NCBI GenBank assembly: GCA_903845195.1
Contig: CAIMWO010000057.1
Span: 9,186 to 73,185, forward strand
Direction: 5' to 3'
DNA: 64,000 nucleotides
Source: an uncultured Phycisphaerales bacterium
Lineage (GTDB): Bacteria; Planctomycetota; Phycisphaerae; WQYP01
Both the position numbers and the translations under genes were made by a program. A model generated the notes under the pieces. The model ran no database searches, was not told the origin of the DNA, and worked only from the letters and a program-made list of their open reading frames with translations. Position 1 is the stretch's first letter. The number at the start of each line of letters is the position of its first letter. Positions 3,663 to 52,142 of the stretch are shown here, piece by piece.

Positions 3663-3780
3663 GAGAAGCAAGAAACAAGAATTAAGAAGCAAGAATGGCT
3701 GACGCCGGGAATGGGGTTTCCATCGCCGGGATGGCTATTTCTATTCTTGATTCCTGCTTCTTGCTTCTTGATTCTTTCTT
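3663..3780. terminator. Inverted heptamer tracts between convergent purH and yggS (possible bidirectional terminator)
   Basis: An AGAAGCA-type tract (3663-3696) faces its reverse complement (3741-3780) across a spacer of about 45 nt. The two can pair as a long imperfect hairpin. Confidence 0.4.
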
Positions 3781-4728: not shown

Positions 4729-5793
4729 TCAGGCGGCTTCGATGAGGTCGTCGGTAATGGGGGCGATGCGGCCGGCGTGGAGTTGTTCATCGTAATCTTT
4801 GCGCCAGTCCTGGAACGCGGAGACGACGGTTTCGAAATCGGCGGCGGAGTTGATTTGGCGCATGGGGTCCTTGAGCTTGCGGCAGGGGGACATGGTGCGT
4901 GCGTACCAACTGATGCGCTTGCGGAATTCGAGCACGGCGATTTGTTCTGTGCGGTACTGGCAGAGGCCGTGGAAATGGCGGCGGATCATGGCGCATTTTT
5001 CGTCGATGGTGGGCTCGGCGGGGATGATGCCGGTGGTGAGGTGGCTCCAGATGTCGCGGAAGAGCCAGGGGCGGATGAGTGCGCCGCGGCCGATCATGAT
5101 GCCGGCGCAGCGGGTGTATTCGATCATGTGGCGGGCGTCTTCGGGGGTTCGGACGTCGCCGTTGCCGATGACGGGGATGCGTTGGACGCTGGCGACGACC
5201 TGGGCGATGCCGTCGAGGCGGGCCTGACCGGTGAATTTCATGGCGGTGGTGCGGCCGTGGATGGTGATGAGGCTGACGCCGACATCTTCGAGGCGGCGCG
5301 CGAGGTAGGGGGCGACGATGGAGGAGTCATCCCAGCCGAGGCGGAGTTTGCAGGTGAGGGGCGTGCGGAGGAGGCAGGATTTGATTTGTTCGACCATGCG
5401 GAGGGTTTGGTCGGGGTTGCAGAGGAGTTTGGAGCCGCCGTCTTTCTTGGTGACTTTGTCGACGGGGCAGCCCATGTTGATGTCGATGACGTGGGCGCCG
5501 CGGTCTTCGGCCCACATGGCGGCTTCGCAGAGGCGGTCGATGTCGCTGCCGTAGAGCTGCATGCAGAGGGGGGAATCTTCGGGGCAGGTGGCGGCGAGTT
5601 CGAGGGAGCGTTTGTTTTCGCGGAGGACGCCTTCGGGGCAGAGGAGGTCGGTGGAGGCCATGCCGACGCCGCCGCAGGAACGGGCGACGAGGCGGAAGGC
5701 GAGGTCGCAGTAGCCGGCGATGGGTGCGAGGAGGAGGTTGGTGGCTAAGCGGAGGGGGCCGATGGTGAGAGGGATGGGGGCGGTGGGAAGCAT
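4729..5793 (-). CDS. dus: tRNA-dihydrouridine synthase
   Basis: 354 aa. LAPIAGYCDLAFR, DINMGCP..KV, TIHGRT and GNGD motifs of the Dus family are present. Confidence 0.9.
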   Translation of the reverse strand: MLPTAPIPLTIGPLRLATNLLLAPIAGYCDLAFRLVARSCGGVGMASTDLLCPEGVLRENKRSLELAATCPEDSPLCMQLYGSDIDRLCEAAMWAEDRGAHVIDINMGCPVDKVTKKDGGSKLLCNPDQTLRMVEQIKSCLLRTPLTCKLRLGWDDSSIVAPYLARRLEDVGVSLITIHGRTTAMKFTGQARLDGIAQVVASVQRIPVIGNGDVRTPEDARHMIEYTRCAGIMIGRGALIRPWLFRDIWSHLTTGIIPAEPTIDEKCAMIRRHFHGLCQYRTEQIAVLEFRKRISWYARTMSPCRKLKDPMRQINSAADFETVVSAFQDWRKDYDEQLHAGRIAPITDDLIEAA

Positions 5794-5837
5794 GAGGGAA
5801 AGTTTAGCAGATTGGGGGGGGGGAGAGAAATTCAGAA

Positions 5838-8239: not shown

Positions 8240-8520
8240 AGGGAGCTATGGCGACAACCTCTAGGGCTTTTCGCATGGACGCTGTAACTTCAATAGCGTC
8301 AACATATGGTGATCTACTCCCGGTCCTATGTCTGTGCTACTTACCGTAATGACCCGACATGATTGGCAGTAAATAGGAGGACCAAATTAGGCCTTGAGTC
8401 TTGGGTCTTGGCCAGTGGACAGAAGGTCACCTCGCCATTCTGAATTCATCATTCTGCATTCTGAATTCTTCCCGCCTTCCCGCCCACCAACCCTCATTTT
8501 TGACCTAAAAACGCGGTTTC

Positions 8521-8884
8521 GATGCTTCGGGAGGCTCATCCGGTGCTTCGGGAGCCTCTTCCGATGCTTCGGAAGGCTCATCCGAAGCAGGGAATGCCTC
8601 ATCCGACCCTTCGGAAACCGCATTCTCTGCTTAAAATGGCCCTTTCGACGCTTCGGATGCCTCATTCCATCCATGGAATGCCACGTTCCATGCTTACAAA
8701 GGGTCATTGCATGCTTACATTGAGGCGTTGCAGGCTTACATTGAGGCGTTGTAAGCATGCAAAGGATCATTGCATCCATGCAATGAGGCGTTGCAGGCAT
8801 GAAAAGCCGTTTTTCAGGCTTACAATGAGGTTTTGTAAGCCTGCAATGGGACGTTGGAAGCCTCCATCGAGGCATTGCAATCCC
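8521..8884. repeat. Degenerate tandem array of mini-hairpins with a period of about 21 nt
   Basis: About 17 units of 19-23 nt. Clear stem-loops are at 8566-8588, 8672-8692, 8734-8756, 8757-8775, 8779-8795, 8800-8816, 8818-8840 and 8860-8873. Confidence 0.75.
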
Positions 8885-8945
8885 CCGAAAAGCATTCTTG
8901 CTCCGTCACGGACCACGGCTCACGATCCACGGCCCACGAGCGATG

Positions 8946-9971: not shown

Positions 9972-10025
9972 TCACGGCCCACGGTCCACGGACCACTGAC
10001 CACTGACCACTGACCACGAACCACG
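9972..10025. repeat. Heptamer tandem tract, CCACGGN/CCACTGA family
   Basis: cacggcccacggtccacggaccactgaccactgaccactgaccacgaaccacg. Related tracts are at 8907-8940, 10528-10563 and 56017-56052. Confidence 0.8.
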
Positions 10026-10527: not shown

Positions 10528-10617
10528 CTCACGGCCCACGGCTCACGAACCACGACCCACGATCTTCTTGCTTCTTGCTTCTTGCTTCTTGCTTCCACCT
10601 TCTAACTTCTAACTTCC
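10528..10617. repeat. Three abutting heptamer tracts (CCACGNN, CTTCTTG, CTTCTAA)
   Basis: cacggcccacggctcacgaaccacgacccacg, then (cttcttg)x4, then (cttctaa)x2, just upstream of dapA. Confidence 0.8.
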
Positions 10618-10671
10618 AGTCCCCGTCCGTGATACAATGGGACTCTGTTCGATTTTACAGGAGCGGCAGAC

Positions 10672-11565: not shown

Positions 11566-12200
11566 TGAGAATTCAGAATTCAGAATTTAGAATTCAGAAT
11601 GCTGCTGGGTGGGGGCGGTGTGCGGTTTTTGCGGTGCTGATCGGGGTGATTGGGGGGTGTCAGGGATTGGAGAAGAAGCCGGCGGGGGGTGTGGCGACGC
11701 AGGAGGTGACGGGCGAGGGGGTGAGTGCGACGGAATTGCGGGATGTGCTGGCGGATCTGGGGCGGGCGCATGGGCAGAAGGTGCAGTTGGCGTGGTGGGT
11801 GAGTACGCCGCTGCGGCCGGTGAGTCCGCAGTTCGTGAAGTTTTACGAGAACATGGGAGTGCAGCAAAAAGAACTGCAGACGGAGTTGAAGGGGTGGGCC
11901 AAGACGCACCAGGTGGATCTGACGTTTCACTATACGTCGGATGTCTACAGCGAAGGGCAACGCATCATGGAGCAGCGCCAGGAGAAGATGGTGCGGGATG
12001 ATGACCAGCCAAATTTTGAGCGGGACAATTTGATGCAGATGCATCAGGATTACGAGTGGCAGGTGAGCCTGATCAGGGCGCTGCTTCCGAGCGTGAAGGA
12101 GGCGGGGCTGAAGGCGTATCTGGAAAAGAGCCTGGCGGTGCATGAGGCGGGGTCGAAGGAGATCGTGGGGCTGCTGCGGGGATTTAAGTTTCAGAAGTAG
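11562..12200 (+). CDS. Putative lipoprotein, DUF4142-like (tentative)
   Basis: Start overlaps the dapA stop. Lipobox-like VIGGC. The C-terminal FERDNLMQMHQDYEWQVSL...LKAYLEKSL resembles the DUF4142 pattern. The first codons lie in an AATTCAG heptamer tract, so the true start is uncertain. Confidence 0.45.
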   Translation: MMRIQNSEFRIQNAAGWGRCAVFAVLIGVIGGCQGLEKKPAGGVATQEVTGEGVSATELRDVLADLGRAHGQKVQLAWWVSTPLRPVSPQFVKFYENMGVQQKELQTELKGWAKTHQVDLTFHYTSDVYSEGQRIMEQRQEKMVRDDDQPNFERDNLMQMHQDYEWQVSLIRALLPSVKEAGLKAYLEKSLAVHEAGSKEIVGLLRGFKFQK

Positions 12201-14237: not shown

Positions 14238-14302
14238 GGAGTTTTTTTACCACCAAGGCACCAAGACACCAAGAATTTTCAATTATCAATTTTCAATTTT
14301 CG
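14238..14302. repeat. GGAGTTTTTTTACCACCAAGGCACCAAGACACCAAG element (copy B) plus a TCAATTT heptamer tract
   Basis: Direct repeat of 12206-12241 with one indel and one substitution, followed by ttcaattatcaattttcaattttc. Confidence 0.8.
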
Positions 14303-15569
14303 AAAAATTGGGGGTGGCCGTGGGTTGGAGGGGGGTGCGGCCGCGGTAGGCGATGAAGGATTGGACGAGGATGCCGAGGAGCATGACGGCGGTGACACTA
14401 ATGGCGATACGGGCGAGGGCGGCGGTGGAGAAATCGTTGCCGCCGGCGATGGCGCCGACGGCGGGTCCGATGGCGATGCCGGCGCCGATGAGGGCTTCGT
14501 GGACGCCGGCGTGTCCGCCGTGGCCGGAGGATACGTGCATGGCGTAATAGAGGCTGGAGGAGTAGACGAGAGCGGCGGAGAGGCCGAAGACGCCCTGGGC
14601 GAGGCCGAGGGTCCAGGGGTTGGAGTTGAGGAACATAAGGGCGAAGGAGAAGGTCAGGGCGATTTGCGAGCCAATGAGCCAGCGATTTTTGTAATGCCAG
14701 CCGGCCCATTTCCACGTGAGGCCGAAGCCGACGAAGCGCATGAAGCTCCAGATGGAGGTGACGAATGCGACGATGCGGAGGTCGGTGAAGCCGGCTTCGT
14801 TGGCGAGGCGCATCTGGACGGGGGTGACGACGTTGATGGCGACGTAGGCCAGGGTGTTGCCGATCCAGGCCATGATGAGGAGATTCTTGGCGCGGCGGCG
14901 GATGGCGGGATCGTCGACGTCGTGCTCGCCACCGGATTCCTCGGGGACATGGTCGGCGCTGATCATGGCGGCGGGGATGGCGCGGGTGGCGAAGATCAGC
15001 AGGGCCAGGGCCGAGGCGATGGCCGGGGCGATGAAGATCATGGACCAATCGAGGTGTTCGAGCGTGCCGCGGGTGAAGAGGGCGGCGAAACCGGCGGAGC
15101 CCCAGGAGAGGTTATAGATGGCCATACGCGTGCTGAGGCGCATTTTGGCGGGGGAACGGGTGATGGCGGATTCGAGGGCGGGCCAGATCATGGTGCTGGT
15201 GATGTTCATGGGAAGCATGACGGCCAGGAGGATCCAGATGCTGTGCATGTGGATGGCGATGAGGGCCAGAAGGGTGGTGGCGATGCAGCCGGCGATCATG
15301 GTGCCGACGACGCGGCGTGGGCCGAGCTTTTCGGAAAGCCGGCCGGCGCCCAGGGCGATGAAGATGTAGGCGAATCCCCAGGCGGCGCTGAGCCAGAGGC
15401 GCGCGGCGGGCGTGACGTGGAGGATTTCGTCGGCGTAGTCGTAGCAACCGGCGCAGAAGAGCGTGGCGGCGTAGGAGTTGAGAAATTCGATGATGTACCA
15501 GGGGAGAAGCGTGCGGCGGCCGGAGAGATGCGGTTGCATTGGGTCGGCGGTGGCGGGGGAGAGAGACAC
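14286..15569 (-). CDS. MFS transporter
   Basis: 427 aa with about 12 hydrophobic segments and a GAGRLSEKLGPRRV loop between TM2 and TM3, typical of MFS. An alternative start is the ATG at 15539. Confidence 0.8.
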   Translation of the reverse strand: MSLSPATADPMQPHLSGRRTLLPWYIIEFLNSYAATLFCAGCYDYADEILHVTPAARLWLSAAWGFAYIFIALGAGRLSEKLGPRRVVGTMIAGCIATTLLALIAIHMHSIWILLAVMLPMNITSTMIWPALESAITRSPAKMRLSTRMAIYNLSWGSAGFAALFTRGTLEHLDWSMIFIAPAIASALALLIFATRAIPAAMISADHVPEESGGEHDVDDPAIRRRAKNLLIMAWIGNTLAYVAINVVTPVQMRLANEAGFTDLRIVAFVTSIWSFMRFVGFGLTWKWAGWHYKNRWLIGSQIALTFSFALMFLNSNPWTLGLAQGVFGLSAALVYSSSLYYAMHVSSGHGGHAGVHEALIGAGIAIGPAVGAIAGGNDFSTAALARIAISVTAVMLLGILVQSFIAYRGRTPLQPTATPNFSKIEN

Positions 15570-15633
15570 GGAGACTCCGGGTAAGACAAGGGGGGAGTTT
15601 CGAGGTTAACGGGACAAGTTTCAAGTGAGGTCG

Positions 15634-15680
15634 CGCCAGCATGCTCAGCGGGGCCCCTGCCCCACTGAGCATGGCACCCG
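15634..15680. repeat. Palindromic hairpin element, intergenic copy
   Basis: cgccagc-ATGCTCAGCGGGGC-ccct-GCCCCACTGAGCAT-ggcacccg: a 14-bp stem with one mismatch. A second copy lies inside ileS at 19320-19370. Confidence 0.85.
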
Positions 15681-15703
15681 TGATCGTGGTTCTGCGGTGC
15701 ACT

Positions 15704-17032
15704 TCAAGGGAAGATGCCGCGCTGGATGTAGGCTTTGTTGATGTGGTCGATGGCGGTGACGTAGGCGGCGGTGGACATGTCGATGGAGAATTGCTGGGCG
15801 GCGAGGCGCACGCGGCGGGCGGCGTTGACGATCACTTTCTTGAGTTCGGCATCGACGCGGTCGAGTTCCCAGCGGACGCCGGCTTTGTTCTGCACCCATT
15901 CGAAATAGCTGACGGTGACGCCGCCGGAGTTGCAGAGGATGGCGGGCAGGTGGCCGATGTTGCGGTAGGCGATGATGGCGTCGGCCTCGGGGGTGCAGGG
16001 GCCGTTGCCGCCCTCGGCGAGGACTTTGCAGTCGAGCCATTCGGCGATCTGTTTGGTGATCATGCGTTCCATGGCGGCGGGGATGAAGACATCGACGGGC
16101 GTGCGGAAGAACGTTTCGCTGTCGATGGATTCCAGGCCGGACTGGTCGTAGCCTTTGATCGAGCCGGTCTTGGCGACGTGGTCGGCGAGTTCTTTGGCGC
16201 GGATGAAGCCATCGGCATGTTGGGAGCGGATGCCGCCGGTGTGGTCCATGACGGCAACGAGTTTGGCGCCGAGGGATTCGAGGACGGTGGCGGTGTGCGC
16301 GCCGACGTTGCCGAAGCCGAGGAGGCTGAAGCGCATGCCTTCGAAGTTGATGAGGAATTCGGGGAGGAGTTCCTGAAGGACGTAGACGATGCCCTGGCCG
16401 GTGGCCTTGTCGCGGCCTTCGGAGCCGCCGCAGGGGAGGCTTTTGCCGGTGACGACGTGCTTGAGGGCCTGACGTTCGGAGCCTTCGTGGGTGTTGAGGT
16501 AGGTGTCCATCATCCAGTCCATGATCTGGGAATTGGTGCCGACATCAGGGGCGGGGATGTCGTGATCCGGTCCGATGGTTTCGCCCAGGGCGGCGGTGAA
16601 GCGGCGGGTGAGGCGCATGAGTTCGTTGACGGAAAGTTCGCGAGGATTGACCTTGACGCCGCCTTTGGCGCCGCCGTAGGGGAGGCGCATGAGGGCGCAT
16701 TTCATGGTCATCCAGAGGGCCAGGGCCTTGCCGTCATCGAGGGACATTTCGGGGTGATAGCGCATGCCGCCCTTGTAGGGACCGAGGATGTTGTTGTGCT
16801 GGATGCGGTAGCCTTTGAAGATCTTGTAATGGCCATCATCCAATTGGACGGGGAAGTTGAAGATGAATTCGTTCTTGGGCTGGCCGAGGATGGCGCGGAC
16901 GTAGTCGGGGGCGTTGAGGACATCGCAGGCGCGATTGACGGCATCGACGGCCATGGCGAAGAGGGATTCAGGATCCTTGGGGGTGAGGGGTTCGGCGGGT
17001 GGGAGGTCGGTGGGTTGGGGGGTGATAGCCAT
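15704..17032 (-). CDS. gdhA: Glutamate dehydrogenase (Glu/Leu/Phe/Val dehydrogenase family)
   Basis: 442 aa. YKGGMRYHP, PYGGAKGGV and GFGNVG Rossmann motifs are present. GGAGAG lies upstream of the ATG. Confidence 0.9.
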   Translation of the reverse strand: MAITPQPTDLPPAEPLTPKDPESLFAMAVDAVNRACDVLNAPDYVRAILGQPKNEFIFNFPVQLDDGHYKIFKGYRIQHNNILGPYKGGMRYHPEMSLDDGKALALWMTMKCALMRLPYGGAKGGVKVNPRELSVNELMRLTRRFTAALGETIGPDHDIPAPDVGTNSQIMDWMMDTYLNTHEGSERQALKHVVTGKSLPCGGSEGRDKATGQGIVYVLQELLPEFLINFEGMRFSLLGFGNVGAHTATVLESLGAKLVAVMDHTGGIRSQHADGFIRAKELADHVAKTGSIKGYDQSGLESIDSETFFRTPVDVFIPAAMERMITKQIAEWLDCKVLAEGGNGPCTPEADAIIAYRNIGHLPAILCNSGGVTVSYFEWVQNKAGVRWELDRVDAELKKVIVNAARRVRLAAQQFSIDMSTAAYVTAIDHINKAYIQRGIFP

Positions 17033-17057
17033 GGGCGCTCTCCAATTGATCGAATCG

Positions 17058-17716
17058 CTAAAGCCCGCCGACTATGTCGGCGTGGGCCGATCTCTGCAAC
17101 ATCTTAGCTCGGGATATTCCGAAACGACCACACCCATGCGCCTTCTTTTCCTGCATGATCGAGGATGTAGTGATATACAGCGACGCCATGAGGCCGGCAC
17201 ATTATTGGTTTGACACCGCTTTCGCCTTCCCAAAGCTTCTGGCGCGTGCGCGAGGTGGCATCGCTGATCGGTGAGAAATTAAACATGACGTGCTTCTTGG
17301 CATGGCCGAGGATGGGGTTGGGACGATTGTTTTCGCATTGTACGAGCGCATGGAAGTGCGTGGCGCCGACGGCAAGAGCAAGAATAGGAATTCGCTGAAG
17401 GGTAAAAGTTTCGAGAAGAAGGCAGCCAATGGTCTTGCGATCAGCCGGTGCGATGAGATAGGGTTCGCCCTTCATTATGCATTTAGAGTATTGCCACCGA
17501 CGGGCATGAAATTCTGAAGGAGGAGGTGGAGTTTTGTAATCTCCATCGACGTGTTCGTGATGGTCACGTTCGCGCCAACCGCGTTTGTCTCCGGGGAGCC
17601 ATTGCGCGTAGGTGCCGACGGTGCAGTGGTACCAGTTGCGCCATGCAGTTGCGATCATGATGTCTCTCCAGAGGTAAGGTGGATCGGCCCGCGCCGACAT
17701 AGTCGGCGGGCTTTAG
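17058..17716 (-). mobile_element. REP-flanked RAYT unit (Y1 HUH transposase between inverted 35-bp repeats)
   Basis: Left repeat 17058-17092 (ctaaagcccgccgactatgtcggcgtgggccgatc) and right repeat 17682-17716 are reverse complements with one mismatch. Each contains the hairpin CGCCGAC-tat-GTCGGCG. Confidence 0.75.
17104..17658 (-). CDS. REP-associated tyrosine transposase (IS200/IS605-like Y1 HUH enzyme)
   Basis: WYHCTVGTYAQWLPGDKRG at the N-terminus, HUH motif THFHALV, and a Tyr-containing C-terminal helix VAVYHYILDH. Start set at the ATG at 17658 (GGAGAG upstream), because the longer ORF runs into the right repeat. Confidence 0.7.
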   Translation of the reverse strand: MIATAWRNWYHCTVGTYAQWLPGDKRGWRERDHHEHVDGDYKTPPPPSEFHARRWQYSKCIMKGEPYLIAPADRKTIGCLLLETFTLQRIPILALAVGATHFHALVQCENNRPNPILGHAKKHVMFNFSPISDATSRTRQKLWEGESGVKPIMCRPHGVAVYHYILDHAGKEGAWVWSFRNIPS

Positions 17717-20700
17717 GTGCCCTTTCGCAGGGCACTGACCACCGCGGCGTCGCGGGCGCTGAGGTCGGGGTAATCCTTGTCGGAGCCGACGTCGGGGCGG
17801 CGTTTCCAGGAGCGGGCGCAGGAGGGGTATTTTTCGCGGGTGTCTTCGATCTTGATGTCCCAGATTTCTCCGTGTTCGATGCGGTGGAAACCTACGCCGA
17901 GGGCGTCTTCGATTTCCGGGCCGTATTGGGCGATGAGCTTGGCCACGTCGTCGTTGGTGGAGGGGACGATGATGACGGCTTCGGCGTCGAGGGCGTTGCC
18001 GAGGCCGACGGATTTCTTGAGGTCGTCGAGTTGCTTGTTGCCTTTCTCGATAAGCGGCATGAGGACGCCCCAGTGTTTCTCTGCGTGTCCCATCGGATTG
18101 CATTCGAAGACTTCAAATTGTGCCAGATGCACACTGCGAGTCAGAGAGCCACCCCCTGGAAGTTTGCGCATTTCATTCCACGCTTCCTCCGCAGTAAAAG
18201 CAAGGATCGGAGCAATCAGCTTGACGAGATGCTCGAGAAGGAAGCAGCACATCAACTGTGAACCTCGTCGTTTCTTGGAATCAGGCAGTTCGCAGTAAAG
18301 GCGGTCTTTAATGGCTTTTGCATAAACGGCGCTGATCTCAACATTGCAGAACTCGTATACGAGTTTGAAGACATTATGGAATTCGTAGCGTTCGTACGAG
18401 CTGAGGACTTGTTCCTGCAACTGCGAGAATCGCCATTCCATCCAACTGTCAATGGAATAAGGTTCAAAACCAATGTGGACACCCGTTTCGTAGTTGAAAT
18501 CGTAGAGGTTGCCGAGGAGATAGCGGATAGTGTTGCGGATTTTGCGGTAAGCGTCGGCAGTCTTGGCCAGGAGGTTGGGGCCGCAGGGGATGTCGTTTTG
18601 GTAATCGACGCTGGAGACCCAGAGGCGCAGGACATCCGCACCATATTGCTTGAGGGCGGTTTCGACTTTGATGCCGTTGCCCTCAGCCTTGGACATCTTG
18701 TGGCCTTTTTCGTCGACCACGAAGCCGTGGGTGAGCACTTGCTTGAAGGGTGGCTCGCTCTTGTAGCCGCTGGCTTCGAGGAGTGAGGACTGGAACCAGC
18801 CGCGGTGCTGGTCGGAGCCTTCGAGATAGAGGTCCGCAGGATAACCAAGCTCGGGGTGAGTGCATTCGAGGACGGCGTGGTGGGAGGCGCCGGATTCGAA
18901 CCAGACGTCGAGGATGTCGGAGGACTTGGTCAATTCTGAATTCTGAATTCTGAATTCTGAAATCAGGCGTCCATCGGGTGTGATGACCGTGTCGGTCCAT
19001 TCTTCTGCACCGAGGAGTTGGGCGGGGGTGTGGGTGTACCAAGAGTCGGCGCCGTGCTCTTTGAAGTAGGCGCCGATGCGGCGGACGGATTTTTCGGTGA
19101 AGAGGATGTTGCCCTTGTCATCGAAGAAGGCGGGGATGGGGACGCCCCAGGAACGCTGGCGCGAGATGCACCAGTCGGGGCGGGTGTCGAGCATGCCGTC
19201 GATGCGGTTTTTGCCCCAGGCGGGGATCCATTGGACGGAATTGACGAAGGCTTTGGCATTGGACCAGAGGGGGGAGGAGGCTTGAGTCTTGAGTCTTGAG
19301 TCTTGAGGTGCGGTGGATTCGCCAGCATGCTCCTGACGGGGCCCCTGCCCCATCAGGAGCATGGCACCCGAATCACCCGATGGGGTGTCGTCGGCGGAGG
19401 CGGCTTTGACGAACCATTGTTCGGTGGCGCGGAAGATGACGGGCTTTTTGCAGCGCCAGCAGTGCGGGTATTCGTGGTCGAACTGCTGGTGGTGGAAGAG
19501 GGCGCCGGTTTGCGTGAGCTTGTTGATGACCATTTCGTTGGCGGCCCAGATGGATTGGCCTTTGAGGAAGTCGGGGACGGTGTCATCGTATTTGCCGTCG
19601 GCGAGGACGGGGTTGTAGATTTCGAGGCCGTACTTGATGCCGGTCTGATAGTCTTCCTTGCCGTGGCCGGGGGCGGTGTGGACGAGGCCGGTGCCGTCGT
19701 CGAGGGTGACGTAGTCGGCGAGGACGACGGGTTGGATGCGATCACGGACTTGGCTGTGCGAGCCCGTTAGCCCATCAAGTTCCATCTGTTTTGAGCCGTC
19801 GTGATTGTCAGGCATTCCGAGTGGATGGAAATACTTAAGTCCCATTTCGACTAGATCCCGGCCGCGCACCGAGCCATTTGCCTCCGATCTCGCGAAATAA
19901 CCCAGGTTGCGGATTCGATCGTGTGCTTCTGCCGCAACGATCACGCATTTTGTGTAGTCGCCATTGGATTCCGGGTCAGTCTTCTCCCGGTACCAATACA
20001 CTATGTATTCGTGATCAGGATGAACCGCGACCGCACGATTTGCGGGGAGGGTCCAGGGAGTCGTTGTCCAAATCATTAAATACGCATGGCCAGTGAAGGG
20101 TTGGAGTTGCTTGATGAAATGTTCAGTGGTGGAGTTTGATGGTTTCAATGCGGCTACATTAGCGAGCTTAAAATTGACATAGATCGAATGATCCTTCCGC
20201 GTCGCGTACTCGAGTTCCGCCTCCGCCAGTGCCGTGCGGTCATTGGTGCACCAGTGGACGGGTTTCTTTTTGCGGTAGACGAGGTCGCGCTTTACGAGTT
20301 CGGCGAGGACGTCGAGGATGCCGGACTCGTATTTGGGGTTGAGGGTGAGGTAACGGTCCTGCTCACCGGGGCCGAAGAAGATGCCGAGGCGGGCGAAGCT
20401 GTCGGACTGGAGTTGGACGTACTTCATGGCGTAGTCGTGGCACTTCTGGCGGACCTGGTCTTTGGAGAGCTCGCGGAACTTGGGGCCGAGTTCCTTCTGG
20501 ATGGCGGACTCGATGGGGAGGCCGTGGCAGTCCCAGCCGGGGACGTAGGGGGCATCGTGGCCCTGCATGGTGCGGAACTTGATGACGATGTCTTTGAGGA
20601 CCTTGTTGATGAGGTGGCCCATGTGGATGTCGCCGTTGGCGTAGGGGGGGCCGTCGTGGAGGACCCACTTGCCTTTGGGGTGCCCCCCCCGGCGGTCGCG

Positions 20701-20856
20701 GATTTTCTGATAGAGGTTTTCATCCTGCCACTGCTTGAGCATCACGGGCTCACGCTGGGTGAGGTTGGCCTTCATGTCGAAGTTGGTCTTCGGCAGGTTG
20801 AGGGTGTCTTTGTAATTGGGGGGAGTGGGGGGGGTGGGAGCGGCGGGTTCGGTCAT
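17713..20856 (-). CDS. ileS: Isoleucine--tRNA ligase
   Basis: PYANGDIHMGH (HIGH), HKMSKAEGN (KMSKS), WTTTPWTLPAN, RPDWCISRQRSWG and LYLEGSDQHRGWF. Start set at the ATG at 20856 (MTEPAAP). The reading frame is intact despite embedded repeat elements. Confidence 0.95.
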   Translation of the reverse strand: MTEPAAPTPPTPPNYKDTLNLPKTNFDMKANLTQREPVMLKQWQDENLYQKIRDRRGGHPKGKWVLHDGPPYANGDIHMGHLINKVLKDIVIKFRTMQGHDAPYVPGWDCHGLPIESAIQKELGPKFRELSKDQVRQKCHDYAMKYVQLQSDSFARLGIFFGPGEQDRYLTLNPKYESGILDVLAELVKRDLVYRKKKPVHWCTNDRTALAEAELEYATRKDHSIYVNFKLANVAALKPSNSTTEHFIKQLQPFTGHAYLMIWTTTPWTLPANRAVAVHPDHEYIVYWYREKTDPESNGDYTKCVIVAAEAHDRIRNLGYFARSEANGSVRGRDLVEMGLKYFHPLGMPDNHDGSKQMELDGLTGSHSQVRDRIQPVVLADYVTLDDGTGLVHTAPGHGKEDYQTGIKYGLEIYNPVLADGKYDDTVPDFLKGQSIWAANEMVINKLTQTGALFHHQQFDHEYPHCWRCKKPVIFRATEQWFVKAASADDTPSGDSGAMLLMGQGPRQEHAGESTAPQDSRLKTQASSPLWSNAKAFVNSVQWIPAWGKNRIDGMLDTRPDWCISRQRSWGVPIPAFFDDKGNILFTEKSVRRIGAYFKEHGADSWYTHTPAQLLGAEEWTDTVITPDGRLISEFRIQNSELTKSSDILDVWFESGASHHAVLECTHPELGYPADLYLEGSDQHRGWFQSSLLEASGYKSEPPFKQVLTHGFVVDEKGHKMSKAEGNGIKVETALKQYGADVLRLWVSSVDYQNDIPCGPNLLAKTADAYRKIRNTIRYLLGNLYDFNYETGVHIGFEPYSIDSWMEWRFSQLQEQVLSSYERYEFHNVFKLVYEFCNVEISAVYAKAIKDRLYCELPDSKKRRGSQLMCCFLLEHLVKLIAPILAFTAEEAWNEMRKLPGGGSLTRSVHLAQFEVFECNPMGHAEKHWGVLMPLIEKGNKQLDDLKKSVGLGNALDAEAVIIVPSTNDDVAKLIAQYGPEIEDALGVGFHRIEHGEIWDIKIEDTREKYPSCARSWKRRPDVGSDKDYPDLSARDAAVVSALRKGT
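18931..18963. repeat. AATTCTG heptamer tract inside ileS
   Basis: caattctgaattctgaattctgaattctgaaat is 33 nt and translates in frame as ISEFRIQNSEL. It is the same family as the intergenic tracts at 5838, 8437 and 11568. Confidence 0.85.
19281..19370. repeat. CTTGAGT heptamer tract plus palindromic hairpin element inside ileS
   Basis: (cttgagt)x3-4 occupies 19281-19308. The 51-nt hairpin element at 19320-19370 is homologous to 15634-15680. Confidence 0.85.
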
Positions 20857-21164
20857 GTCGGGGCCCTTTTTGAGGATGGAGGCACAAAGGCACAGGGGCA
20901 CTTAAAGTTTATCTCAAAAGCTCTTTTACGATGCACTAAGGCGCGAATTCACCGTCTTTGGAGGGGCTTCTGAGATAGCGTCTTAGGCACTCAGTGATGG
21001 ATTCAAATTGTACAAGGGATCGCGAGGCGATGGGCTAAGCGAGGCATGAGCCTCGGTCAGCCCAGCATAATGGGGATGGCCTCAGTGGTCTGGCGAGGCA
21101 GGATGATGATCTGAACGTTCTTCATAGAGGAAATGATAGCGGCGAACAGCATGTCAGACAATCG

Positions 21165-45717: not shown

Positions 45718-47892
45718 TTACTGACTCCCGGCCCACTTCTGCCACATCTGGCGATAGGCGGCTTCGATGTTGCGGGCGAAACGCGGGGCGTCCATGAGGG
45801 GGGATTTCTGCATTCGCAGGCGGAGGGTTGAACGAAGCTCAGTGAGACGGGGGAGGTCTTGAGCAAGGGATGTGGCGATCTGCACGTACTCATCGGGTGT
45901 GGATGCGACGAGTTCGGGAAGGCCAATGTTGGAGAGGATGCTCAATCCGGCGCGGCTGACGGCGGTGTTGCCGGCAAGACTGACTACCGGCACCCCCATC
46001 CAAAGGGCGTCGCAGGTGGTGGTGCCGCCGCCATAGGGGAAGGGGTCGAGGGCGATGTCCATCTGCGAATAGAGTTGCAGATACTCGGACAATGGCACCT
46101 TGCTGACAACACGCAAGCGCGCCGGATCGATCCCCCACTGTGTCAATCGCTCGGCGGTGCGCTGGCGATGAGAACCCTCGGCCGCATGCAGGAGCAGTTG
46201 CGAATGGGGCACGGCGTGAAAAATACGAGCCCAGATGGCAAGGGTGGGATCCGTGACTTTGCAGAAGTTATTGAGGCAGCCGAAGGTGGTGTGGCTGGCG
46301 GAACTGGCGGGCAGGGGGCCGACGGGCGATGTGTCCTGGGGTTCGTAGCACCAGTAGGTTTCGGCCAAGCGGATTGTTTGTTCGCTATAGACGGACTCGT
46401 CAATGCCCGGTGGATCGAGGTAGGGGTCGCTGAGGCGGCAATCCATGGTGGCGAGGCCGGAAGTTCCGGCATAGGCCAGGTAAGTGACCTGGACCGGTGC
46501 AGGTTTACGGGCGAAGACGAGGAGGCGATTGTGGGCCATGTGCAAGGTCAGATCGACCAGTATGTCGATGCCGTCATCGCGAATGAGTTGGGCTGCCTGT
46601 TCGTCGGAGAGCCCGATCGTGCTGCACCAGTGATCGGTAAGTTCCCGCAGGCGTGCGGTCACGGCATCCGGGGCGCGCACATGGGCATAGCAGAATATCT
46701 CAAATCGGGAGTGATCGTGGTTCGCCAGCAGCGGCAGCATGAAATGGCCGACCACATGATCACGGAAATCGGGGGAGACGTAGCCGATGCGCAGGCGACG
46801 GTCGGGTGTGCGGTCATTGGGGTGGGGTTGGATCGATTGCCGCAACGGTTCAGCGTGTTGTTGATTCCAGCGCTGATGCTCGTGGTGGATGGCACGGGCG
46901 CTGTAGTCGGGATGGAAGTGGAGGGTGTAGACGAGATTACTGTCGGCTGCGACGTAGTCCGGTTTGACCGCGACCGCCTGTCGATAGGCAGCGATGGCTT
47001 CATCCAAGCATCCCATGTCCTTCAGCGTATTGCCAAGGTTGCTGTGCGCTTCGGCATAGTTGGGTCGCAGCGCGATGGCCTGCCGGTAAGCGGCGATGGC
47101 CTCATCGAGTTGCCCTTTATCTGTCAGTGCAGCGCCGAGGTTGGTGTGCGCTTCCGGGTAGTTGGGCCGCAGTGCGATGGCCTGCCGGAAAGCGGTAATG
47201 GCTTCATCAAGTTGGCTCTTTTCTGCCAGGGCATTGCCGAGGTTGTTGTGCGCTTCCGGGTAGTTGGGCCGCAGCGCTATGGCCTGCCGACAAGCGGCGA
47301 CCGCCTCATCGAGTTGCCCATAATCTCTCAGGGTATTGCCGAGGTTGTTGTGCGCATCCGCGTAGTTCGGCCGCAGTGCGATGGCCTGCCGGTAAGCGGC
47401 AACGGCCTCATCAAGTTGGCCCTTTTCTGCCAGGGCATTGCCGAGGTTGCTGTACGCTTCCGGGTAGTTGGGCCGCAGCGCGATGGCCTGTCGGAAAGCG
47501 GCAATGGCCTCAGTGAGTTGGCCTTTTTCTGCCAGGGCATTGCCGAGGTTATTGTGCGCTTTCGGGTAGTTGGGCCGCAGCGCTATGGCCTGCCGACAAG
47601 CAGCGACCGCCTCATCGAGTTGCCCATTATCTCTCAGGGCATTGCCAAGGTTGTTGTGCGCTTCCGCGTAGTTCGGCCGCAGTGCGATGGCCCGCTGAAT
47701 CAAGTCCACGGCCATGTCATTACGGCCTACCTGATGGGCGATGACTCCAAGGAGATGCAGGGCGTCGGGCTGATTGGGCTGGTGGACCAGAATCTGGCGG
47801 TAGAGTTGCTCAGCCTCAGTGAGTCGGCCTGCCTGATGGTGCTGCACGGCGGTCTGAAACAACTGGTCGAGGTTAGTGGTGACATTCAGCAC
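45718..47892 (-). CDS. TPR-repeat protein with a SPINDLY/O-GlcNAc-transferase-like (GT41) C-terminal domain
   Basis: There are at least 9 TPRs, seven of them near-identical, followed by RIGYVSPDFRDHVVG...VTYLAYAGTSG...FGCLNNFCK...YSQMDIALDPFPYGGGTT. Start proposed at the GTG at 47892, by analogy with the MLNVTTN start of the paralogue. Confidence 0.8.
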   Translation of the reverse strand: MLNVTTNLDQLFQTAVQHHQAGRLTEAEQLYRQILVHQPNQPDALHLLGVIAHQVGRNDMAVDLIQRAIALRPNYAEAHNNLGNALRDNGQLDEAVAACRQAIALRPNYPKAHNNLGNALAEKGQLTEAIAAFRQAIALRPNYPEAYSNLGNALAEKGQLDEAVAAYRQAIALRPNYADAHNNLGNTLRDYGQLDEAVAACRQAIALRPNYPEAHNNLGNALAEKSQLDEAITAFRQAIALRPNYPEAHTNLGAALTDKGQLDEAIAAYRQAIALRPNYAEAHSNLGNTLKDMGCLDEAIAAYRQAVAVKPDYVAADSNLVYTLHFHPDYSARAIHHEHQRWNQQHAEPLRQSIQPHPNDRTPDRRLRIGYVSPDFRDHVVGHFMLPLLANHDHSRFEIFCYAHVRAPDAVTARLRELTDHWCSTIGLSDEQAAQLIRDDGIDILVDLTLHMAHNRLLVFARKPAPVQVTYLAYAGTSGLATMDCRLSDPYLDPPGIDESVYSEQTIRLAETYWCYEPQDTSPVGPLPASSASHTTFGCLNNFCKVTDPTLAIWARIFHAVPHSQLLLHAAEGSHRQRTAERLTQWGIDPARLRVVSKVPLSEYLQLYSQMDIALDPFPYGGGTTTCDALWMGVPVVSLAGNTAVSRAGLSILSNIGLPELVASTPDEYVQIATSLAQDLPRLTELRSTLRLRMQKSPLMDAPRFARNIEAAYRQMWQKWAGSQ

Positions 47893-48013
47893 GGTCTCTT
47901 CCCGCAAGGGGTGGCAACGTCTGTGGCCATGGTCGGCCTGATGGTGAATGGAGTGGAGTATCCAGTACGATGCAGCTTCAGCGGCGGCTGGTGCGCGAGG
48001 ACGCCGTGAATGG

Positions 48014-48184
48014 CTATTTTGAACGTTCGCTAAGCGCCAGGCCAACCGCGCCGCCGGCGATCAAGACCGCTGACGTCACGAAGGAATCGGGGATATCCAC
48101 CAGTGCCACGACGCGCAGTAGCCGCAGCACAAATAGCACGATCCCAACCACCAGTAGAATGATCGATATGATCTTGGCTGCCAT
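48014..48184 (-). CDS. Small (56 aa) two-TM hypothetical protein
   Basis: MAAKIISIILLVVGIVLFVL...AVLIAGGAVGLAL, with GGAGAGG upstream of the ATG. Confidence 0.45.
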   Translation of the reverse strand: MAAKIISIILLVVGIVLFVLRLLRVVALVDIPDSFVTSAVLIAGGAVGLALSERSK

Positions 48185-51917: not shown

Positions 51918-52142
51918 CCCCTAAACCGCCATCGCAATCGCGATGCAATCGCGGCAGAAAAATATCGCCCATTCAAAGGAGGGGTGTGATATCACAACGC
52001 CCCCTCGCGGTAAAGCCGATCCCCCTAAACTTTCACTATTCACCATTCTCCATTCACTATTCCCCACCCTTGACACCTTTTCATCTATCGACCATCATCA
52101 ATACTCCTTTTTCGTACCCCTCTTTCCGCTCAAGGAGCTCTC

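Follow-up and report, generated by a model that had tools for sequence, protein, structure and literature searches.

We analyzed a stretch of 64,000 nucleotides (nt) from an uncultured Phycisphaerales bacterium (contig CAIMWO010000057.1), called the window here, in which the gene for isoleucyl-tRNA synthetase (ileS; protein, IleRS) contains an extra in-frame segment with a hairpin and a heptanucleotide array. The explanation that we favor, with a probability of roughly 70%, is that a repetitive extragenic palindrome (REP) from a family associated with REP-associated tyrosine transposases (RAYTs) has become established, with the frame kept and in sense orientation, at a disordered loop of IleRS that is permissive to insertions, next to a heptamer array made by slippage, and that the 40 additional residues are tolerated. 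The original prediction, which had read a palindrome and a heptamer tract in this essential gene as an in-frame insertion comparable to those of Rickettsia, held up in its core; the novelty that it implied and its pairing of the two elements had to be revised.

The extra in-frame segment of ileS

The ileS gene lies on the minus strand (17713-20856) and encodes 1047 amino acids (aa) from the ATG at 20856; the open reading frame (ORF) reaches a GTG at 20901. We identified the gene through its homologs, which are IleRS proteins of Phycisphaerae with PF00133 and PF08264, and through a match to an IleRS in the Protein Data Bank (PDB) (E = 4e-64). Its best protein matches, IleRS sequences from Phycisphaerae (Planctomycetota), reach identities of 67-71%. 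As had been proposed, the frame stays open across the entire insert, and the ORF of 1047 aa is intact.

The extra segment occupies 19276-19395 of the minus strand (120 nt, 40 codons, residues 488-527, ADDTPSGDSGAMLLMGQGPRQEHAGESTAPQDSRLKTQAS), with the hexamer GCCTCC at both boundaries. The extra DNA amounts to 120 nt in total, and therefore the reading frame is kept. On the sense strand the protein reads TEQWF VKAAS (ADDTPSGDS GAMLLMGQGPRQEHAG ESTAP QDSRLKTQ AS) SPLWSNAKAFVNS VQWIP, with the insert in parentheses. This insert is composite, consisting of unique DNA, a REP, and a heptamer array, and we found a single direct repeat at its flanks, the GCCTCC on either side of the complete 114-nt insert. 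When the hairpin is judged as a miniature inverted-repeat transposable element, its arms are readable as terminal inverted repeats, and the candidate duplication is limited to the GCCTCC around the composite insert. Because the insert bounded by GCCTCC is composite, a target-site duplication is doubtful.

The stretch from TEQWF to VQWIP had been described as expanded, and we observed 58 residues in the window IleRS versus about 16 in 8C9E, the nearest solved IleRS. We measured the loop in 44 orthologs (window included), from EQWF to the W/F-I/V/Y-P-x-WG motif. It has 21 residues in the basal orthologs P0030, P0032, P0033, P0047, and P0057 and also in several others (P0016, P0019, P0021, P0026, and P0040); in P0031 it has 24 and in the window protein 59. 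HMMER splits the alignment with the PDB sequence around the insert. None of the 43 other orthologs, including P0060 and P0031, carries the window insert or REP-encoded residues. In a neighbor-joining tree of 583 core columns, the sister of the window protein is P0060, whose loop holds a different, tandemly duplicated peptide. The window insert is lineage specific, with the boundaries given above. The same extra residues in orthologs without the repeat, which had been named as the sign of an ancestral loop, were absent from this alignment.

We found the identical insert in five contigs from five samples, produced with different assemblers, with 99.9-100% identity over 3-5.5 kb. Because five independent assemblies carry the identical sequence, the insert is not an assembly artifact. 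In an AlphaFold2 model of IleRS, the mean predicted local distance difference test score (pLDDT) is 83.9 and the core fold is confident. Insert residues 490-526 have a pLDDT of <50 and no secondary structure, and they lie between a strand (472-484) and a helix (529-540). The insertion site is thus predicted to be a disordered, exposed surface loop of the catalytic domain, after the EQWF strand, which agrees with the surface loop that had been raised as a question for modeling. The tryptic peptides predicted from the insert region are AASADDTPSGDSGAMLLMGQGPR and QEHAGESTAPQDSR. A phmmer search of 1.84 billion representative proteins with the 41-aa insert peptide returned a spurious repetitive ORF as its sole hit.

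The window IleRS has another insert of 23 residues (MPDNHDGSKQMELDGLTGSHSQV), encoded at 19750-19818 on the minus strand, with low pLDDT and DNA that is AT-richer than the rest of ileS. It is not found in the 38 aligned orthologs, although P0031 carries something similar at this position. We rejected an origin of this insert from repeats: it contains no repeat, has no significant fold (z = -0.8), and is unrelated to the repeats described here.

The hairpin and its family in Planctomycetota

The hairpin in ileS (copy A; 19320-19370, minus strand, 51 nt) has the predicted palindromic form, with a 17-bp stem and a 4-nt loop, and an outer 6-bp stem extends it to 19316-19374. Its sense strand reads CGGGTGCC-ATGCTCCTGATGGGGC-AGGG-GCCCCGTCAGGAGCAT-GCTGGCG and encodes (S)GAMLLMGQGPRQEHAG(E). 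The sense RNA folds with -49.6 kcal/mol (z = -6.2), and none of 200 dinucleotide shuffles folds as well. A partial duplication of the head lies just upstream of copy A (TCGGGTGAT/TCGGGTGCC).

The second copy that had been noted (copy B; 15634-15680, minus strand, 47 nt) is indeed intergenic and has the orientation of copy A. It consists of a 15-bp stem and a 4-nt loop, with an outer stem to 15629-15685, and folds with z = -3.7. Copy B begins 23 nt past the stop codon of gdh (15704-17032, minus strand; Glu/Leu/Phe/Val dehydrogenase family, PF00208 and PF02812), whose 3' end it follows, and ends 64 nt ahead of the next gene downstream, which encodes a transporter of the major facilitator superfamily (14286-15569, minus strand; PF07690). 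The two copies share the flanks CGCCAGCATGCTC and GAGCATGGCACCCG and the distal stem and loop GGGGCCCCTGCCCC. The mid-stem of copy B is shorter, and the differences between the copies are compensated (CTGAC/ATCAG versus AGC/ACT). In both copies there is one C.A mismatch on the plus strand, which is a G.U pair on the transcribed strand.

A covariance model (R1) finds exactly two copies in the 64 kb, copy B with 43.6 bits (E = 1e-7) and copy A with 41.3 bits (E = 4e-7); the next-best score in the window is 13.8 bits. No Rfam family matches either hairpin at gathering thresholds or in permissive mode. We rejected an intrinsic terminator, as there is no T-run after the hairpin and no terminator was called at either copy, and we also rejected GGCACCC as a sigma-54 -24 element, as a look through the copies showed none with a suitably spaced TTGC. 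A metagenome scan for the window hairpin type (CAGCATGCTC..GGGGCNNNNGCCCC..GAGCATGG) gave 0 hits. Elsewhere in the window, a 700-nt intergenic stretch (8393-8940) is dense in 21-/42-nt tandem repeats, heptamers, and long imperfect palindromes (arms 8779-8825 and 8833-8879), and a weak R1 match at 8710-8759 lies inside it.

To define the family, we scanned one genome per species with the pattern CCAGCATGCTC-N(10-40)-GAGCATGGCA, which gave 58 loci. About 28 of these 58 are true hairpins with the base CCAGCATGCTC...GAGCATGGCACCC, and all of them come from Planctomycetota (Pirellulales, Planctomycetaceae, Gemmatales, and Phycisphaerae); pattern matches outside Planctomycetota do not fold and look like chance. 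The family has a conserved basal stem (CATGCTC/GAGCATG) and a tail (GGCACCC), and a CCC tail follows most hairpins. Inverted doublets 55-110 bp apart occur in loci L006, L011, L019, L025, L033, and L057, and a looser search revealed more copies in the fetched loci. We aligned 35 copies, drawn from about 20 Planctomycetota genomes, and found CATGC and GCATGGCA without variation. Stem cells in these copies are 92.6% paired; with the partner slid, the figure is 21-46%. Of the 10 pairs, 5 have changed at both positions. In other genomes, members of the family lie between genes or in 5' leaders. Several apparent copies in coding sequence were rejected: the one in L027 is ordinary coding sequence (MoeA-like by eye) without a hairpin and a chance match, the one in L005 lies in a shadow frame over two genes on the opposite strand, and those in L010 and others are actually in 5' leaders. 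With R1 we also searched 115 kb of DNA surrounding ileS in six relatives and found no copies.

Members of the family flank canonical RAYT genes in two genomes. In L011 (Phycisphaerales HK-STAS-PLAN-14), copies (1397-1439, 1482-1523, and 2326-2368) lie to either side of a canonical RAYT gene (1584-2171; PF01797, with the motifs VIMPEHVHLLL and YIHANPV). In L056, a RAYT gene (1448-1993) whose product is 49% identical to that of L011 is bracketed by inverted REPs at 1379-1421 and 2063-2105, which are 27 and 70 nt from its ends. We call the hairpin a REP because copies of its family are intergenic, often form inverted doublets, and flank these canonical RAYT genes. Judged by its sequence and that of its relatives, the hairpin of 51 nt belongs to the REPs, in a family associated with RAYTs. 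It is like REPs in every tested feature except the GTAG/CGTC tag; the conserved head and tail of its family are GGGTGCC and GGCACCC. The earlier description of the hairpin as an intergenic-type element fits a family that is otherwise intergenic, and the correction is that the element can now be named. A REP family without GTAG or CGTC tags that flanks RAYT genes in Planctomycetota may be of interest to specialists on RAYTs and on REPINs (REP doublets that form a hairpin). At L011:1224-2368, the canonical RAYT gene also adjoins a truncated remnant of a 184-aa Y1-like family (described below), and the REP doublet appears to interrupt the remnant gene.

Heptamer arrays, refilled loops, and a neighboring Y1-fold gene

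The heptamer tract reported in ileS was recovered by Tandem Repeats Finder at 19277-19307 (site 1; minus strand), with the plus-strand unit GAGTCTT (sense, AAGACTC), 4.4 copies, and 95% matches; it encodes (P)QDSRLKTQA. At site 2 (18932-18961, minus strand) there is a further array with the sense unit TCAGAAT/CAGAATT in 4.3 perfect copies, which encodes SEFRIQNSEL, a segment modeled by AlphaFold2 as a confident beta-hairpin. The unit family of site 2 recurs in intergenic arrays at 5829 and 11568.

Such arrays are frequent in the window. We counted 19 period-7 arrays versus 1.27 expected (maximum of 4 in 30 shuffles), an enrichment of about 15-fold, and perfect arrays of at least three copies are of period 7 only. 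By crude gene calls, 15 arrays are intergenic, 2 overlap predicted 5' gene ends, and 2 are in ileS; examples lie at 1889-1921, 3664-3695, 3744-3780, 9973-10025, 10530-10618, 11568-11600, and 52032-52066. The unit AAGAAGC is found in 5 arrays, 3 of which begin 0-11 nt past a stop codon in sense orientation, and AATTCAG is found in 3, including the one at 18932-18961. Both ileS arrays are identical across the five assemblies, without variation in copy number, and so nothing suggests phase variation.

At site 2, orthologs have a segment of equal length made of other heptamers: AAATCGA (L059), AAATCAA (L062), and CCAATTA (L063). Many other orthologs have site-2 peptides with a 7-residue periodicity. 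Segments of the same length with differing heptamers suggest concerted turnover of the unit. In L060 (11727-11757, approximate) and L064 (11772-11802, approximate), site 2 is occupied by an identical 28-nt perfect palindrome, CAAGCCCAGGGATTGCAATCCCTGGGCTT, which encodes QAQGLQSLGF; this peptide is conserved in many relatives, and the IleRS proteins of L060 and L064 are about 30% apart.

At site 1, arrays in relatives do not establish that the array is older than the REP: the units of relatives differ widely (AATCGAA, ACTCAGG, TCAGTCC, and AAGAAGC), and P0060 and P0031 have no array. This would fit either an ancestral array whose units turned over or repeated gains. The site-1 array is a separate element type and need not have come with the hairpin. 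Of the earlier pairing of hairpin and tract, what stands is that both are in ileS; the tract is separate, arrays are abundant in the genome, and relatives have other units at that place.

The ileS gene of L059 contains three heptamer arrays, and there is only one in its 20 kb of flanking DNA. The third of these arrays (L059:12616-12650) is in frame, has five copies of CCCGAAC, encodes PNPEPRTPNPE, and lies in a length-variable region near the C-terminal domain. In L062, a long hairpin with 35-nt arms, partly of CACAGAG-type heptamers, lies just upstream of ileS (4874-4966). A longer tandem repeat of the window, of 102/306 nt at 47022-47830 (minus strand; ORF 45718-48045), consists of tetratricopeptide repeat (TPR) units in a protein with TPR and glycosyltransferase-41 domains and is ordinary.

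We read the ileS-region DNA of six relatives (L059 to L064) and found that the same loop has been filled with other elements. In L060, L061, and L062 it holds long hairpins with the arms TCCGAG(C/A)CGCGACCGT(T/C)AGGGAGCG, which encode peptides of the form RPLGSG...LPYGRGSD. The loop of L063 holds a dimer with a 26-bp stem (GAGCCGCGGGTGGAAACCCGCGGCC...), and that of L064 holds a GTAG-tagged dimer or REPIN (GTAGCTCCGGGCGGAAGCCCGGGGC...); each arm in L063 and L064 is itself a small palindrome and in this respect REPIN-like. In L059, the loop has a heptamer array only, with 4.6 copies of AATCGAA. Peptide signatures indicate similar loop content in P0003, P0012, P0058, P0060, P0061, and P0074.

A related event is seen in the valyl-tRNA synthetase (ValRS) gene of L060. 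This valS (15331-19071; scaffold_516_c1 of ERZ12294693) is an ORF of 1246 aa with a complete Y1 transposase domain in frame (PF01797, E = 5.6e-7). Two inverted arms enclose the domain, and its position (SDQWFV to DWCISRQ) is that of the ValRS loop homologous to the one filled in IleRS; the arms are those of the first family above, from the ileS genes of L060 to L062, and a second pair of arms follows DTWFSS. This Y1 domain has 685 homologs, with the JGI name RayT; the best 120 of the 685 are all free-standing proteins of 157-276 aa, none of them embedded in a larger protein. In all, the in-frame content of the IleRS/ValRS loop ranges from REP/REPIN elements of at least four families through heptamer arrays to, in the valS of this relative, a complete RayT ORF.

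The simplest reading of this recurrent refilling is a selection filter, in which elements land widely and only the disordered synthetase loop tolerates them. We regard it as rather unlikely that the (E/D)QWF loop of IleRS and ValRS is more than a tolerant site, namely, a preferred landing pad for Y1-mobilized hairpins in this clade. The refilled loop is a natural experiment that can show where a class I synthetase tolerates insertions and at what rate inserts turn over.

A gene for a protein of 184 aa with a Y1 (HUH) transposase fold, similar to RAYT and to the TnpA of IS200, follows ileS at a distance of 54 nt from its stop codon (17104-17658, minus strand). By itself, this gene has no Pfam hit. 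Its family (21 homologs, all hypothetical and from the same clade) matches a PF01797-positive Y1 transposase in hhalign with a probability of 98.3% (E = 1.5e-14). The AlphaFold2 model of the protein has a pLDDT of 83; its top Foldseek match in the PDB is 4ER8, a RAYT-REP complex, and the next 29 matches are all transposases of IS608, IS200, or ISDra2. The protein retains an H-F-H motif and the conserved Tyr, and the first His of HUH is lost in several homologs. The protein may be a domesticated transposase. The gene lies between the two REP copies, with one 1.6 kb upstream and the other 1.4 kb downstream in the same orientation. It also adjoins ileS in L062, and our data suggest the same arrangement for P0017 and P0025; probably, it is linked to ileS in the same operon. 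The arrangement is suggestive but does not amount to evidence of a functional link between the Y1-like gene and the REP. The ileS-linked Y1-fold gene, the refilled loop, and the in-frame RayT in valS are worth specialist attention. If targeting were active or the Y1-like neighbor acted in cis, this would be a site-directed, protein-remodeling REP/RAYT activity on essential translation genes.

Competing explanations and known systems

In the explanation that we favor, one copy of the REP sits in a usual place for REPs, just downstream of gdh, and the other would have landed, in sense orientation, in the exposed, length-variable IleRS loop between the EQWF beta-strand and the next helix. The enzyme would carry about 40 extra disordered residues that are most likely tolerated rather than useful. 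The site would be permissive: insertions elsewhere in the essential ileS would be lost, and different REP/REPIN families and arrays would share this loop because only loop insertions persist. The heptamer arrays would be replication-slippage microsatellites typical of the source genome, which inside genes could change only in three-unit steps (21 nt).

Several observations weigh against this explanation. There is no canonical RAYT gene in the 64-kb window and there are only two copies of the family; any activity of the family in the source genome is therefore putative. The ends of the hairpin (CGGGTGCC at the sense 5' end and GCTGGCG) do not show the GTAG or CGTC tag of the described REP superfamilies. 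The neighboring Y1-like gene is divergent, as its missing Pfam hit and the loss of the first His in several homologs indicate, and a link between it and the REP family finds no support: L062 has the gene, yet its ileS hairpin belongs to a different family and it has no R1 copy. Translation of the insert is read from the open frame. A hairpin of -49.6 kcal/mol in an essential mRNA could be costly, which would leave room for a selected role at the RNA level. In both copies the mismatch is compatible with G.U pairing on the transcribed strand, and the conserved 28-nt palindrome at site 2 of L060 and L064 hints at selection at the nucleic acid level in ileS.

A different explanation is that the hairpin, possibly with the heptamer tract, is kept for a role at the RNA or DNA level, as an RNase barrier, as a site of ribosome pausing between the enzyme halves, or as a protein-binding site that tunes expression, with the peptide as a by-product. 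We consider it unlikely. It would account for the very stable sense-strand hairpin (z = -6.2), for a single mismatch that is G.U on the transcribed strand in both copies, for the compensated changes between their stems, for the nucleotide identity of the 28-nt palindrome in two genomes whose IleRS proteins differ by about 30%, and for the concentration of arrays in the ileS of L059; REPs after genes are also thought to act as RNA elements (PMC3733652). However, REP families in general show G.U pairs and compensated changes in their stems, no Rfam family matched, and there is no T-run or terminator-like tail behind the hairpin. Further, the loop content is unrelated among sister lineages and many loops are empty, so no conserved RNA element is needed at this site.

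Local copying in place of transposition is improbable. Here, gene conversion or template switching between copies 3.7 kb apart (in either direction), or stepwise growth in an already expanded loop, would have produced copy A, and the two window copies would be a local pair and not part of an active dispersed family. This would fit the presence of only two copies in the window, which have the same orientation, are separated by 3.7 kb, and have in common a distal stem and loop (GGGGCCCCTGCCCC) that is unusual and absent from the other genomes. The 0 hits of the metagenome scan, the partial duplication of the head upstream of copy A, and the GCCTCC repeat that flanks the 114-nt insert would fit as well. 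However, RAYT-flanking copies from many genomes have the conserved base and tail too; because these recur in this way, the element type must be mobile or at least dispersed. The mid-stems also differ at at least 6 positions and by 4 nt in length, which argues against recent conversion.

It is very improbable that the insert is missing from the mature protein, through ribosome bypass or through removal from the mRNA or protein. Translational bypassing, as in phage T4 gene 60, comes to mind because a strong hairpin lies in a coding gap. However, the frame is open throughout, the length is a multiple of three, and we found no intein or intron signature and no Rfam hit. The inserted hairpins of relatives also avoid in-frame stop codons, such as at CCGTTAGGG in L060, a spot at which other copies of that hairpin family presumably read GTAAGG. 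A sequencing or assembly artifact is scarcely credible: mis-assembly is a classic problem at repeats and hairpins, but the five contigs from five samples, identical across the insert, refute it.

The fixation of a REP in the IleRS loop can be compared with several known systems. Rickettsia palindromic elements (RPEs) were reportedly found within protein genes by Ogata and colleagues in 2000; RPE-1 elements are about 100-150 bp and restricted to Rickettsia. Like RPEs, which often lie in genes for essential proteins, the window element is a palindrome that occurs both between genes and in frame in a gene for a functional protein, at a surface-compatible position. In contrast to RPEs, it is RAYT associated in related genomes and its host belongs to Phycisphaerae; the resemblance is functional only. 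The RPE-like in-frame insertion of the original prediction therefore holds in its core analogy and is less novel than was implied, as in-frame REPs, including ones in tRNA synthetase genes and in a bacterium of the Planctomycetes-Verrucomicrobia-Chlamydiae (PVC) group, have been documented well beyond Rickettsia (PMC3733652).

The REP/REPIN-RAYT systems of Escherichia coli and Pseudomonas (4ER8) have in common with the window element a short palindrome, imperfect and with a covarying distal stem, beside which a single-stranded head or tail is conserved, a mostly extragenic position just 3' of genes, inverted doublets, and copies that flank RAYT genes (L011 and L056). The differences are the tag (GGGTGCC/GGCACCC) and the window stems, which are longer than most (15-17 bp plus the outer stem). 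In addition, two copies are visible, the cognate RAYT gene is not in the 64 kb, and one copy is inside a coding sequence.

Heptamers are the commonest long simple-sequence repeats (LSSRs) in prokaryotes, with slippage as the usual explanation, according to Mrazek et al. 2007 as summarized in PMC4679880. The window arrays resemble known heptanucleotide repeats, such as LSSRs, the short tandemly repeated repetitive (STRR) sequences of cyanobacteria, and the TAACTGA of Beggiatoaceae (PMC4679880), in having 3-8 tandem copies at many loci, mostly intergenic. They differ in that many units coexist (AAGAAGC and AATTCAG recurring), in that arrays often start 0-11 nt after a stop codon in sense orientation, in the two in-frame arrays of an essential gene, and in the different units that orthologs use at one position.

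The closest precedent is that of REP-decorated proteins. Di Nocera, De Gregorio, and Rocco (2013) described REP families with GTAG or CGTC tags from eight phyla, Planctomycetes among them, and in several species intragenic, in-frame REPs present as single units or dimers that encode 20-30 residues (PMC3733652). In genes for known proteins such inserts add about 20-80 residues; the numbers of intragenic REPs were highest in Opitutus terrae (PVC; many genes) and Rickettsia conorii, and the tRNA synthetase genes that host REPs came from three proteobacteria, X. oryzae, E. litoralis, and S. alaskensis (PMC3733652). The authors judged in-frame REPs likely to be neutral in loops or linkers (PMC3733652). 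In-frame REP insertion is already a known kind of event, and the window case, a REP in frame in a known-protein gene with a tRNA synthetase as host, adds a member rather than a new kind. It differs in the REP family and in the phylum-level lineage (Phycisphaerae). It is also a clean and reproducible case in which a selfish or structural DNA repeat has been absorbed into an essential enzyme without breaking it, in a poorly studied phylum, and for annotators it explains odd low-complexity peptides of Planctomycetota (GAMLxxxxEHAG, RPLGSG...LPYGRGSD, and motifs with 7-residue periodicity). In PMC3733652 we did not find the pattern seen here across a clade, in which a single loop of one enzyme has received arrays as well as members of no fewer than four unrelated REP/REPIN families. 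This recurrent colonization of one loop and the RayT fused into the valS of a relative are the more novel results.

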